NCBI GenBank assembly: GCA_964016885.1
Contig: OZ024750.1
Coordinates: 12,896,001-12,960,000, forward strand
DNA from: Eledone cirrhosa
Taxonomy: Eukaryota
Length of the DNA stretch: 64,000 nucleotides
Direction of reading: 5' to 3'
The notes under the pieces were generated by a model. That model was not told the origin of the DNA and made no database searches. It saw only the letters and a program-made list of their open reading frames with translations. A program made the position numbers and the translations under genes. Below are positions 24,001-45,000 of the stretch, piece by piece (within the stretch, counting starts at the first letter, position 1; each line of letters begins with the position of its first letter).

Positions 24001-27000
24001 CTGCCCTCACGACGCTCTCAGAAATAAGTGGGCAGCAAAGAATAAGAAGAAGAATAAGAAGATAAACTTTTCAAAACATTTTCCATTGTTCAGTTATTCA
24101 TACCAATAGCCATGTTTATAATTGAAATATTATAAAATAATCACATTTTTTACACAAATTAGTATCAAAACTATCATGTATGCATAGAGCTATTCATTTA
24201 ATGAAATATGTTTATAAGAAAAACTTTAAAACCTTTAAAATATTCTAAAAGAAACTTAACTGTTGGTCAATCAATGATAAACATTGTTTGCCAGCTAAAT
24301 TATTTATAGAAATATATTGAAGTGAAAAACCAAACCAAACCAAACAGTGAGCGTGTTTGACTATTTTTTGGCAATATTAGAACAACATGACCTCCCCAAA
24401 TATAACAATATCTGTTTCAACACACAATTTCATGTAAAAAACAAAACCTTGCAAAACAAATACATGACTGTCACAAACTTATAAAACTTTTATTGAAAAA
24501 AAAAAAAGACTTACCAATTGGTCTACGTGGCATAACTGGGCTAGCAAGCCATACGGCATTACCAATACCTTCAATGTTTTCTGCTGCCACTCGGAATCTA
24601 TATTGACGGCCTTCTTGTAAGCCACCAACCATATACATTGTTTGTGTTGTTCTACCAATTGCTTTCCAATTTGTTGAACTACCATCACATCTTTCAATGA
24701 CATAACCATACAAGTCTGTTCCACCAAAGTCAAGTGGACGAGTCCATTCTAGTGTAACACTGTCTTCAGTTACTTCTGTTACATGTAAGTTCTGTGGTGC
24801 TGAAGGTTTATCTGAAAATAGGTAATAATTAGACAAATTATATACATATTCAATCAAATTCATCAACTTTGGTCACTATCTTGCTCCAAACTGAGCAACA
24901 TATCCCCTGCTTATCTTTCATTTTACCCTCCCTTATTATTGGTTGCTGAAAGTATCCAGCCAACCATCTCATATCTTATCTCTTTCTCTCTCAGACTTTC
25001 ACACACACAGACACACACACATACATACACAAATTTCACACCAAGTCTAAATGCATTGGATATGATTTTGTATATCTATTTACTCATAACCCATGCTGTA
25101 TTGCTACTCTCAGAATATTAATAAATCAAATTCACGATGTGTAAAATGTATGAAATGTTAATATTGGAATGAATATAAAATAACAACAAAATGAAGAACT
25201 TACGATATGGGCTTTTTACTTTCAAAGGTGCCCTTAATTCCAATGGCTCACTGTATCCAATTTCATTCTGAGCGTAAACTCTGAAATTGTAGGTATGGTT
25301 TTCAGTTAAGTCATGCAGAGTGCAGTTTGTATCTTCTGCGGGGACATATGCTGCTTTAACCCAAAAGCCCCAAGTGACATCTATTTTCTCTATTAGATAT
25401 CCAGTAATAGGGCAACCGCCATCATCAATAGGACGTCTCCATGACAGAGTCAAGGAATCATGAGCCATATCGGAAACATTAAGTGGTCCAAGTGGAACTG
25501 AAGGAGTTTCTGGAAATAAAAGACATATTATTGAGTTTTTAAAGAATTGTTGAAATACATATTTGAAATTACTCTATTACTCTATTACATGTTCTTGCCG
25601 ACAGGCTGAGGCCATGCTGGAGCACCACCATTAAATTCATGATAATGTTTTACTATATAATATTTGAGCTAAATTTGATTGTTGATTGTAATATTTCTAT
25701 CAAAATTATTCTTTATTTTACAAATTAGATATAACCATATCTACAATTTATTTTTTTAAGTTAAAATTTCAGAAAAAAGTTCTTTATGTATATTTAAATT
25801 ATGTTTCTTTATAAATACCTGATTGTCTTGTTGGAATTACTGGATTTTCAGTAGGCAGTGGTCTGCTTGAGCCAATGGCATTGACAGCACTCACTCTGAA
25901 ATCATATTTCACTCCTTCAATGAGGCCACGTATAAGACATGAGGTATCTTGTGTTTTAGTAACCACTAACCACTCATCAGATTCGGTCTCTTTAATTTCA
26001 AGGATATAACATGTTAGTCTTGAACCACCATCGTAATATGGAGGCAACCATTCCATTGTAACAGAGGATTCTGTCACATGACTTGGTTGAAGATAACCTG
26101 ATGGGATATCAGGTTTTTCTGAAGAAACAAAAAGAAAACCAGATTATTTTTATTAGACAGAAAACTGAAATTTATAGAATTCAATATGATTGACTGTATT
26201 TAACCCTTTAGCATTTACATTACTCTATATTTACTATTGTATTTTCACGGTAAACACTTTACCTCACATAATCATCTCACATAATATCGAATCTATGAGA
26301 TTTTGATATTATTTATTTTGAGAACAATACCTTAACATCAGTATGAGTGGTCAGTTATGACTCGTTTGAACAGAAAGAAGTGAGAGAATTCTGGCCGGAT
26401 ATGGCCAGTTTAAATGCTAAAGGGTAAAATATATAAATAAAACTTTGATATAAATTCAGATTTTTATCCAAAATGTGTGTATATATTTTGTAAAATTTCA
26501 AAAAACAAAAAACATTCCACAGGAAAAAATCAAATATAATCTACATACCTGGGGGCTTTTCACAGCTGACAATATCAGATTGTGCAAAAGGTCCTTCTCC
26601 TTCATCATTAGTAGCTGAGATTCTGAACTGATAATTTCGTCCTTCCAAAAGTTTGCTAATAGTGTATTCTCTTGATGATGATTTTACATCACTAACAGGT
26701 ACCCATATCATACGAGTCATATCTCGTTTCTCAATAGAATAGGAATTAATAGGTTTTCCACCATCAGTCTTTGGTGTGGACCATTTCAGAATAACAAAGT
26801 CAGCACCAATGTTACTAACATCCAGATCGCGAGGAGCAGATGGTTTGCCTACAAAGTAAGATAACAAACAATATAATATGGAAACAATATAAAAACACTC
26901 TTTTTTAAAATAATGATATGAATATTATACATAATAATTTAACAGTTGTATTCAAGTAATGAAGGCAATGATATTCTAAAAGTACATTATAAAATGTATG

Positions 27001-42000: not shown

Positions 42001-45000
42001 ACAATAGCAGTTGTAGTTTCTGCACGCTCACCAACGCCAACATTGTTCTGGGCTGACACAGCGAAAAAGTAAGGAACGCCAGTTTTTAAGAAATCAGCTT
42101 TGTAGTATTCTTCAGCAAATTTAGTTGTTGCAATCTTAGTCCATTTGGTGGATGATTCTTCACGCATTTCGATAATATAATTTGTAATCTTTGATCTTCC
42201 GTCCTCTTTTGGTGGTTTCCAGTCCATGACAACATAGTCTAATCCCACCTTTGTTGTTCTTAAGTCAACAGGAGTTCCAGGAAAAACTGATAAATGGAAA
42301 TAAATAAAAAAATATATTGTTGATATAACTATAAATTTGTTAAACATACAGTAAAAGAAAGTAGTATTGGAAAGTACTATAAATGTCATAAATGAGAGGA
42401 AAATGAGGGAAAGAGCAAGGACAATTAGATAAAGGAAGAAAGAAAGAGGGAAGAGGAGAGGGTGACAGACTTAGATCAGAGCAGTGTTTTAGCTGTGCCC
42501 CACGGATAATGACCAGCAACAGATGTTGCAACTGTCATCCCACCTTGCAGGGCTTCTTTCTCAAGCAGGCTGCTATCAATCTGATTTTCAGAAGAGGTCA
42601 GCTGTCCAGGGTCCGAGGACATGTGAGGTCTTAACAGTGACTAATGCAAAGAGGAAGTGGCCAGACAAGCTCTGATATTTGCGTGTCTTCTTGTCCTCTG
42701 CATTGTGAGCCATGGTAGCAGGGTTTGGGGCCAAGGTGACTAAGTTGGAGATGGAGAATGTGTCACAACATGAATTAAAACAAAATTAGGAAAATAATAA
42801 TATAACTTAAAAAACTTTAACATTTAAATTATTATTATTATTGAAATATTAAATTGAGCTAATTTTGAATGCTGTTCATCTATTTTCAATAATGAGAAGA
42901 GAAATGAATGAATACCTGTATTTTTCTGAGGTTGTACAGATTCTGTTGACTCTAATGGTTGACTTACTCCTTCTTCATTAAATGCAGAGATTCTGAAATG
43001 ATACTCAGTGTCATCTCTTAGGTCAAAAACTGTTAATTTGGTTGTTTTACCATCAGTTTCTCCAATTTTGACCCATGTAGGTCGAGTCTTTGCTCTCATT
43101 TCCACAATATAACCAAGCAATGGAGATCCTCCATCTGATCTTGGTGGACTCCAAATGACATCACAGAATCTGTCAGATACATTGTCATATAACACAGGTC
43201 CTGTTGGAGTTGTTGGTTTACCTAAAATATTAGCAAAAAATTATATTATATAATGTTGATAACATAATTAAAATAACCAAAGCTAAATGTATAAAACTGA
43301 ATATTTTTTAGAATATTTCAAGCATTGAAAAGTTAAACTTACCAAAGGGACTTTTGATCTTTGTAGTTAAGTCAGTAACAAGTGGATCACTGTTACCAAC
43401 TCTATTGACAGCAGTTACTCGGAAATCATATTCTGTGTCTTCAGTTAAGTCTTTAATGTTGTAAGTTGTTATATTTGCTGGTACACGATCAATTTGACTC
43501 CAGTATGATCGCACAGACTCTTTCTTTTCTAGTATATAAGATGTGAGAGGTGAACAGCCATCATCTTCAGGAGCATTCCAGCTTATGCTAGCAGAATTTC
43601 TGAGAACGTCAAACACTTTGATAGGACCTCTTGGTGTGGATGGTTTAGCTGAATAAATAGATTTGTGTAATAAATAAGTAGCCATAAAGTAAAAACAACT
43701 ACAAACAAGTGGGGAAATATTGGTTTCTGATTTAGGCACAAGGTCAACTATTTTGGGAGAGGGAAAAGTAGATTAAATCTACTCCAGTGCATTACTGGTA
43801 CTTTATTTTATCGACCCCCCCCCCCCCCATAAGGATGAAAGGCAAAGTTAATTTTGGTAGGATTTGAACTCAGAACATAAAGGGTTATAACTCTATGTCA
43901 AAGTATTTCGTCCAATGTTCTACCAATTACTGCCAATCCACCGCCCAGAGTGGAGAAATATTAAAAGACTTATTTTACATCAAACTATTTCTGAAAGACG
44001 ATTTTGTTTAAAAAGAAATATACACAAGAATATATATAATATATACTTCAATGGAATTTAAAACCCATATGATTATAATTTCTCTATAAAACCTATATAA
44101 CTTAATTACATTTATTTAATATTGAATAAAGGAAACATACCTAAAGGTCGTTTTGGTGTAACTGAATGATCAGCATCACAAGGCTTGCTCAAGCCTACGG
44201 AGTTTTCAGCAGAGACAGAGAAATAATAATCCACATTTTCTCTTAAACCTTTAACAGTGAACATATGTTCATATGCACTGACTGAAGTTATTTTCTCACG
44301 ATCTTCATAAATATCAAAGCGTTTATAAATAACGTAGTTGGTAATTTTAGATCCACCATCTGAAATTGGTGGTCTCCATTCTAAAACTGCAAAATCTGAT
44401 CCCACTTTAGTTGCTCTTAAGTGAATGGGAGGCTCTGGAAGATCTGAAATTGAACAAAAGAAATTATATTAAATTAACAAATAAAATACATACTTATTTG
44501 TGTGTATATATTTGTATGTGTGTGTGTATGTGTGTGTGAGTATGTCAATGTGGTTGTGTGTGTATATATATATGTGTGTGTGTGTGTGTCAGTGTGTGTG
44601 TAAAATATATGGAGCTTTCCAGGTATTTGAAGAACTATAATACCTACTTATTGAATTATATTGTAAGTGGCTGAATATTACTGTGCCATGGAAACATGGA
44701 AACAGAGAAGTTAAAATGTTTACCACAGTAATGACAATGATGATACTGATCCTGGTGATGATGATGATGACAATGGTGATGATGACAAGGTGATGATGGT
44801 TAATAAAATTAACAACTTACGTATATTCTTAGTAGTTTTTGTTGTATCATAGGTTTCCAGTGGTTGACTCTTTCCTTCTGAATTGATAGCTGTTACTCTG
44901 AAGAAATACTCAGTATCTTCATTAAGATCATGAACAGTGAAAGAAGTTGATTTACAGTCAACTGAACCAGCCTTAGACCAGGAAGAACGAGTTGAAGCTT

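Follow-up and report, generated by a model that had tools for sequence, protein, structure and literature searches.

Six-domain and nine-domain super-repeats, probably of different age, in a long FN3 array of a likely connectin/titin gene of Eledone cirrhosa

The A-band part of titin is built of two zones with different periods, a D-zone in which a 7-domain unit occurs six times and a C-zone in which an 11-domain unit occurs eleven times (PMC10665226). Invertebrate connectins are usually assigned the elastic I-band part only, and the thick filament is left to twitchin/projectin (PMC12198301). In Drosophila, the C-terminal FN3 end of Sallimus is described as reaching the start of the myosin filament (PMC9886281). 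Here, we describe a gene on the minus strand of a 64,000-nucleotide stretch of the cephalopod Eledone cirrhosa (contig OZ024750.1, positions 12,896,001 to 12,960,000; “the window”), which contains 52 exons of 294 to 306 bases with one FN3 domain per exon. The explanation we favor, with reasonable though not strong confidence, is that two zones, a six-domain one of old origin and a nine-domain one that arose later, together make up what is likely the A-band-like thick-filament part of a cephalopod connectin/titin, in which three domains would form the basic binding step and a loop tryptophan would provide an extra contact or a joint. No title or abstract describing this array was found; older work on invertebrate connectin, mostly in subscription journals, was thinly covered, and this statement is therefore provisional.

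How does the array compare with the known systems? Like the titin A-band, it combines the FN3 fold and the PxPP, DGG, and AxNxxG motifs with three FN3 classes, an [SN]P[FY] linker after type-A domains, two zones of different period, and hierarchical duplication. Unlike the titin A-band, the mollusc repeats contain no Ig domain and no Ig-(FN3)2-Ig-(FN3)3 pattern; their three classes follow one another as type A, type A-like, and type C-like instead of A-B-C, conservation across the phylum does not extend to the long-period zone, and no period equals 43 nm. On a scale of 43 nm per 1,084 residues (the titin chain of 8G4L, taken as one repeat), 3, 6, 9, and 18 domains would span an estimated 12, 24, 36, and 72 nm, so that neither the hexamer nor the nonamer equals the 43-nm myosin repeat. 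By profile score, 30 of the 32 class A and B domains are best matched as the first FN3 after an Ig (28 as the first twitchin FN3 and 2 as titin type A), while class C domains mostly score as later FN3 types. A derivation of the triplet from titin A-B-C by loss of Ig was rejected, two of the three classes being type-A-like.

Twitchin/projectin shares with the array the closest single-domain profiles and a three-domain basic unit, but it has Ig-FN3-FN3 units, no more than three FN3 domains in a row, and a kinase of another clade (Octopus P0220, a separate gene). Sallimus/I-connectin, compared by its description (PMC9886281), is likewise an Ig-rich giant with a C-terminal FN3 end, though of five FN3 domains as opposed to 52 or more here. 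Titin-like rods of ambulacrarians also have unbroken titin-type FN3 runs (40 domains in Patiria P0122 and 31 in Saccoglossus P0126), but none of their 71 domains carries the G-P bulge described below, marking an independent expansion. A 19-domain FN3 run in Saccoglossus P0179, also without the bulge, is of the same ambulacrarian type.

Exons are numbered along the minus strand from d1 (the 63488 end) to d52 (the 14839 end). All 52 have AG/GT ends and are symmetric (phase 1-1), and their domains bear the marks of tandem titin-type FN3: the strand-B Trp, the Tyr corner, PxPP, DGG, and AxNxxG. The Pfam fn3 profile matches d52 and three other exons with E values of 3e-10 to 9e-16. Fifty introns measure 121 to 960 bases; those between d51 and d52 and between d52 and d53 measure 7,706 and 14,744 bases. 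Upstream, the gene continues beyond the window, and because a 53rd FN3 exon, d53, runs off the other edge, it does not end at the array. This exon is likely the route to an Ig-Ig-FN3-kinase end such as that found in Elysia.

Are these exons joined in a transcript? Four sequencing runs of one study cover the stretch, and contigs were compared over positions 24500-29500 with one RNA-type sample, run X4, so judged from its spliced joints. One 4,015-base contig of X4 joins d43 through d48 at the predicted introns and in frame; a further joint links d48 to d49, and the loose ends coincide with where d42 ends and d50 begins. None of these splice joints occurs in the DNA-type run X1. This confirms that the d42-d50 part is transcribed and spliced as one in-frame chain.

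The original prediction held that a nine-domain repeat gives way near 43.3 kb to four six-domain units, and both the shorter period and the junction were borne out. In d25-48, the bounds set by that prediction, identity is 40.5% at lag 6 versus 35.9% at lag 3, with 37.4% at lag 9 and 32.4% at lag 1. An exact parity test, in which the eight domains of each class are split into alternating fours and the three classes are taken jointly, gave 12 of 42,875 splits by identity and 4 of 42,875 by BLOSUM; class by class, the ranks were 1 of 35 for C, 1 of 35 for A, and 10 of 35 for B. The result hinges on the bounds (d28-51, p = 0.23; d33-50, 83 of 1,000), and the signal is far weaker than that of the nine-domain period, for which identity across d1-24 is 59.1% at lag 9 versus 43.5% at lag 3 and 45.1% at lag 6 (permutation p = 2e-4). 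Lag tests rejected periods of 12 and 15 for both zones and of 9 for d25-48.

Blind labelling with six-class profiles trained only on Bulinus and Plakobranchus domains is independent of the choice of bounds. It read d25-48 as B-C-W-b-(C)-a followed by three copies of B-C-W-b-D-a, with 23 of 24 labels as expected, and d1-24 as B-C-a, with 22 of 24. The classes D and A* (the latter the motif-bearing A domains described below) are confined to the hexamer zone. That the nonamer is a hexamer plus a triplet was rejected from the tree and the class labels, the nonamer having neither D nor A*. In a FastTree phylogeny of 150 domains, whose deep support is weak, each of d1-24 lies nearest to a window domain of the same nonamer position (d21 and d13 are ties within the position set), while d25 lies nearest to gastropod domains and 19 of d25-48 lie nearest to a domain of another species. 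This grouping supports a junction at the d24/d25 intron and an older hexamer zone. The edge is soft: d26 and d28 still resemble the domain nine back. Identity declines from 59% at the N-terminal end to 40% in the hexamer zone.

The alternation is also visible in the motifs from which it had been predicted, and the positions then given for them all coincide with donor ends of real exons that have AG/GT borders and phase 1-1. E[ST]W[KR]S[ST]W is present in d27, d33, d39, and d45; VG is present in d26, d32, d38, and d44 and absent from d29, d35, d41, and d47; [SA]FV..Y is found in d32, d38, and d44. A Trp occupies the A* loop column in 5 of 52 domains, the sole extra being d14 in the nine-domain zone. 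Between species, VG is a poor marker (6 of 8 pooled C domains), and the feature conserved at the C and D slots is instead the absence versus the presence of a G-P bulge in strand A.

Where do the marked residues lie? In the FN3 topology, the A-B and C-C′ loops are at the pole opposite the BC loop. The AlphaFold model of d39 (mean predicted local distance difference test [pLDDT] score, 96.4), with strands at residues 6-12, 19-24, 34-43, 50-55, 61-64, and 72-81, resembles titin FN3 structures with template modeling (TM) scores of 0.91-0.92. In this model, the C-C′ loop carries Trp45, the BC loop Ser26, and the A-B loop the VG column (residues 14-15). Fleming et al. (PMC10665226) assign the BC loop, together with the FG hairpin, to the N-terminal pole. 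On this geometry, VG would face the next A* domain and Trp45 would face the SPF linker and the B1 domain, the two sites being separated by the length of one domain.

How old are the two zones? Protein searches returned, among the matches listed, orthologous arrays in the gastropods Lottia, Bulinus, Plakobranchus, Elysia, and Haliotis and the bivalve Pinctada, and likewise in Lingula, the annelid Owenia, Helobdella, and rotifers. The window domains are 43-44% identical to their gastropod and bivalve orthologues, which are 51% identical to one another. No cephalopod orthologue was among the 120 matches listed in each of three protein searches, with lengths of up to 2,000, 5,000, and 7,251 amino acids, or among the 150 of a representative search, leaving the nine-domain period without a second species. 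Aligned one to one, d33-d52 correspond to domains 21-40 of Bulinus and 28-47 of Plakobranchus, d36-d52 to Pinctada 31-47 after removal of one partial domain, d27-d37 to domains 34-44 of Haliotis, and d41-d52 to domains 33-44 of Owenia. The domain-level score is 23.0 for Bulinus versus at most 11.4 in 200 shuffles; against the maximum of 60 shuffles, scores are 20.3 versus 10.8 for Plakobranchus, 18.3 versus 9.4 for Pinctada, 19.6 versus 11.3 for Haliotis, and 4.6 versus 3.3 for Owenia. Lingula reached 3.12 versus a shuffle maximum of 3.11, and P0379, P0403, Adineta, and Helobdella fell within or at the edge of the shuffles. Single-domain gaps in Lottia and Elysia were read as presumed model errors.

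Period 6 is also seen inside the orthologues: 1 of 1,000 in both Bulinus and Plakobranchus, 1 of 27 in Haliotis, and 26 of 1,000 by identity and 11 by BLOSUM in Pinctada; P0403 is equivocal (5 and 1 of 27). Trp45 is found in 15 of the 16 molluscan positional orthologues of A* (Haliotis 34 has Phe) and in 0 of 15 alternate A domains. Ser26, also in 15 of 16, and Lys46 split the same way. This Trp is kept at about 44% overall identity, and a loop Trp occurs in about 2% of other domains. The B slots alternate as well when pooled across species. By these alignments, the hexamer zone is collinear in gastropods and a bivalve and is likely ancient. The N-terminal zone has a different history. Lag-3 identity there is 78% in Lottia, 81% in Pinctada, 72% in Haliotis, 65% in Elysia, 65% in Plakobranchus, and 62% in Bulinus, and lag 9 falls below lag 3 in all six; these zones are built of different triplets. 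The nonamer is therefore likely a younger, lineage-specific duplication. The comparison among molluscs thus recovered the hexamer order in gastropods and Pinctada and the nonamer in none of the six; what is shared across species is the triplet phase plus the conserved hexamer core.

To what gene does the array belong? In the orthologues, the common plan runs from an Ig region through (Ig-Ig-FN3-FN3-FN3)n units to an uninterrupted FN3 block, with Ig regions upstream of the array in Plakobranchus, Pinctada, Haliotis, Elysia, Owenia, and Adineta. The FN3 block is 14 domains long in Owenia, Adineta, P0379, and P0403. Counted to the equivalent of d52, it comprises 41 domains in both Plakobranchus and Pinctada, no fewer than 40 in Bulinus, and 52 or more in the window; the distance from the last Ig pair to that point is 14 or 41 domains in six of seven countable proteins. 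Only two Ig-Ig-FN3-FN3-FN3 units precede the long block in molluscs. There are ten in P0402 (Owenia) and in P0403, and their Ig pairs alternate between lengths of 192-193 and 182-185 residues, a pattern that points to a super-repeat of 10 domains in connectin of the annelid type.

Five models (Bulinus, Owenia, Helobdella, Adineta, and P0403) end after the array in a tail of 56-101 amino acids and have no kinase, while the Pinctada, Lingula, and Elysia models and the window continue past d52. In Elysia, two FN3, two Ig, one FN3, a kinase, and more Ig domains follow. In a tree of 32 kinases, the Elysia kinase lies outside the protostome twitchins (support, 0.99). It is 58% identical over the kinase to Octopus twitchin, and in its first block it agrees with Os_CON at 50 of 64 residues by visual count. 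From this placement and this match, the gene is most likely molluscan connectin/titin. The molluscan connectins Os_CON (XP_036371388.1) and Cg_CON (XP_034304307.1) were studied by Hanashima et al. (2025, PMC12198301); the Elysia array leads to an Os_CON-like kinase, and the portions of that paper's text and supplements consulted deal only with the kinase and SEC14 domains and describe no FN3 array or super-repeat. The original prediction had the two zones evolve convergently with titin on an FN3-only backbone. With Ig regions, (Ig-Ig-FN3-FN3-FN3)n units, and in Elysia a kinase in the orthologues, that backbone is not supported, and because the protein is itself a member of the titin family, the likeness is one of parallel elaboration in a homologue. 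Two other identities were considered. CG14964/MnM, a myomesin/MyBP-like protein (PMC7758640), was dropped once the orthologues' Ig regions and kinase appeared. Twitchin/projectin was rejected: there are no Ig-FN3-FN3 repeats, the domain alignment to Octopus twitchin scores 2.1, within the shuffles, and the kinase is of the other clade.

How might such an array have arisen, and what might it do? In the history that we propose, early molluscs inherited a spiralian block of about 14 FN3 domains (d39-d52) and added hexamer copies to it. The N-terminal side would then have been extended separately in each lineage through duplication of triplets, and in the lineage studied here a group of three diverged triplets would have been duplicated once more, as a nonamer. 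The array would lie along the myosin/paramyosin filament, like the titin A-band and the FN3 end of Sallimus. The three-domain unit may be the basic binding step and the loop Trp of every sixth domain an extra contact or distinct joint, so that the hexamer core would be under position-specific selection and the nonamer would mostly record growth of the array. We infer thick-filament binding from the position of the array before the kinase, its likeness to the titin A-band (PMC10665226), and the FN3 end of Sallimus (PMC9886281).

Several observations weigh against this explanation. (i) The link to the kinase runs through the gene model of Elysia, which Pinctada, Lingula, and d53 support in part; the window itself contains no kinase or Ig exon, and there the Ig profile matches only the FN3 exons themselves (best E, 0.015). 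The orthologues are predicted and often partial models, and Bulinus and Plakobranchus, at 73.5% identity, are not independent. (ii) Helobdella counts 13 domains rather than 14, period 6 is absent from Owenia and Adineta (25 of 27 each), and the Owenia Trp is out of register at one of two places. (iii) The hexamer is not strictly kept. Class B alone does not alternate within the window; d30-32 are missing from Bulinus, Plakobranchus, and Elysia, and Pinctada has six fewer domains; in Bulinus, the WK motif stands at a spacing of 3 in four successive triplets. A strict six-step register is thus not required. All of these changes come in multiples of three, which could result from recombination between like exons alone. 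(iv) In titin itself, Fleming et al. (2023, PMC10665226) found the FN3 types to be similar in structure and considered that they may be remnants of evolution.

The strongest alternative, which we regard as possible but clearly less probable, is that the periods are a record of duplication only, the residues being kept for fold stability or joint geometry and the array being a plain spacer or a weak, uniform binder. The drop in identity toward the hexamer zone fits age, Ser26, Trp45, and VG lie at the domain poles, where in the model they would face linkers and neighbors, titin's types may be remnants (PMC10665226), and triplet-sized losses are tolerated. Yet a loop Trp in nearly every A* domain of three mollusc classes and so rarely elsewhere requires some selection, and although symmetric exons keep the frame singly, complete arrays differ by multiples of three.

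An unlikely alternative is the original prediction's own view, that the nine- and six-domain zones are distinct filament-binding zones, each with a tuned period, like the D- and C-zones of titin. Much of its basis stands: both periods are real and independent of titin's 7 and 11, the junction is definable, the parallel with titin holds, and zone content differs, with D and A* only in the hexamer zone. The tuning of both zones is not supported, the N-terminal period being 3 and not 9 in all six other molluscs. Other molluscs also have paramyosin filaments. Heterobranch snails, moreover, break the hexamer phase. What about the length of about 72 nm for 18 domains (2 × 9 or 3 × 6), so near one of the 72.5- and 14.5-nm periods of paramyosin cores (PMC12040844)? 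It is a coincidence that any triplet array would give, as any multiple of three yields 72 nm, and the 12-nm triplet mismatches 14.5 nm.

Scarcely better placed is a titin-style ruler without Ig domains, in which the hexamer core would anchor connectin on the paramyosin-cored filament, added triplets would set ruler length in every lineage, and the cephalopod 9- and 6-domain zones would coincide once per 18 domains, at about 72 nm, the repeat of paramyosin; use of the alternative last exons after d51 or d52 would remove the kinase end. Least probable of all is that the array belongs to a separate kinase-less FN3 protein in the manner of CG14964, or to a thin-filament binder, rather than to connectin: five orthologue models do end in a short tail and the nonamer (about 36 nm) is near the actin crossover, but the same tail-ended models carry Ig regions upstream, and with Elysia, Pinctada, Lingula, and the window all continuing past d52, an alternative last exon is the better reading of the tail.

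If the old-hexamer, younger-nonamer explanation is right, the A-band-like FN3 region of molluscan connectin comprises 41 to 52 or more domains and combines a super-repeat of ancient origin with Trp45-Lys46 as a conserved candidate surface site; in the annelid Owenia, a similar length is made up of Ig-Ig-FN3-FN3-FN3 repeats. Molluscan thick-filament length varies widely. With its defined fragments and its natural range of lengths among species, the array lends itself to the question of whether that length is set in molluscs by a titin-type template. It would also be a clean, dated case of super-repeat origin: triplet, then hexamer, then a separate nonamer. The features of the window are collected in Table 1.

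Table 1. Positions of the FN3 array, its repeat units and marked domains, and associated exons in the window
Feature	Position	Strand	Evidence or remark
Nonamer zone, d1-d24, (B-C-A)x8, two full copies plus two-thirds of a third	43343..63488	minus	lag identity, tree
Intron d24/d25, 121 bp, 9-to-6 junction	43222..43342	minus	tree, domain similarity
Hexamer 1, d25-d30, B2-C-A*-B1-D-A	38967..43221	minus	collinear with Haliotis domains 32-37
Hexamer 2, d31-d36	34308..38503	minus	exons, orthologue alignment, blind labels
Hexamer 3, d37-d42	29711..33946	minus	exons, orthologue alignment, blind labels
Hexamer 4, d43-d48	25204..29316	minus	spliced as predicted in one contig of run X4
d26, VG-type C domain	41984..42286	minus	motif
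d27, A* domain, ESWKSTW	41325..41627	minus	motif
d29, D-slot domain without VG	39887..40186	minus	only domain labelled C, not D, in blind test
d32, VG-type C domain	37479..37781	minus	motif
d33, A* domain, ESWKSSW, without the usual DGG of the BC loop	36865..37170	minus	motif
d35, D domain, G-P bulge, no VG	35255..35554	minus	motif
d38, VG-type C domain	32946..33248	minus	motif
d39, A* domain, ESWRSSW, Trp45 in C-C′ loop of model	31785..32090	minus	motif, model
d41, D domain	30412..30705	minus	motif
d44, VG-type C domain	28123..28419	minus	motif, RNA-type contig
d45, A* domain, ETWKSSW	27318..27623	minus	motif, RNA-type contig
d47, D domain	25819..26118	minus	motif, RNA-type contig
d49-d51, three further FN3 exons	22851..24811	minus	collinear with Bulinus 37-39
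Candidate alternative last exon after d51, 201 codons, S/Q/Y/H-rich, stop-ended	17604..18211	minus	phase-1 acceptor
d52, FN3 exon	14839..15144	minus	orthologue of last short-isoform domain in other animals
Candidate alternative last exon after d52, 51 codons	11478..11635	minus	phase-1 acceptor; place of Bulinus 56-aa tail
d53, 53rd FN3 exon, start only, cut by window edge	1..94	minus	14.7 kb below d52

The only two long introns each hold one of the candidate alternative last exons, which would give kinase-less isoforms. The candidate after d51 has no Pfam match. The one after d52 has a faint likeness to an FN3 remnant (E, 0.82), and profiles of the tails gave no significant match to it (E, 0.82-2.9). 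The tails of the Bulinus, rotifer, and annelid models resemble a remnant of the C-terminal half of an FN3 domain.

Some domains depart from their class. On the minus strand, the B-slot domains d46 (26549-26848), d40 (30883-31185), and d49 (24515-24811) have the shorter, C-like form of the first strand. The first of these also carries IG, which its Bulinus orthologue does not have, hinting at a local change or a part-exon conversion. The set d5, d14, and d23 (51799-52101, 59384-59686, and 44141-44443, minus strand) has lost the near-invariant Trp before strand C′ and shares a Cys/His-rich C-terminal half; d14 has the ESW motif in a C slot. Like d33, d36 (34308-34607, minus strand) has no DGG in its BC loop.

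The window is AT-rich (GC, 31.8%), with numerous (TA)n tracts. Its introns hold minisatellites at 13311-13927, 56389-56840, 53811-54015, and 39298-39567, with units of 42, 47, 48, and about 107 bases. Short intronic elements at about 26170-26500, 27000-27340, and 28500-28840 reach extreme contig depth in both DNA- and RNA-type runs and are very abundant dispersed repeats. Within the d52-d53 intron, decayed reverse-transcriptase fragments lie at about 3.1-8.7 kb, including an RVT_1 match at 3974-4273 on the minus strand (E, 2.6e-5).

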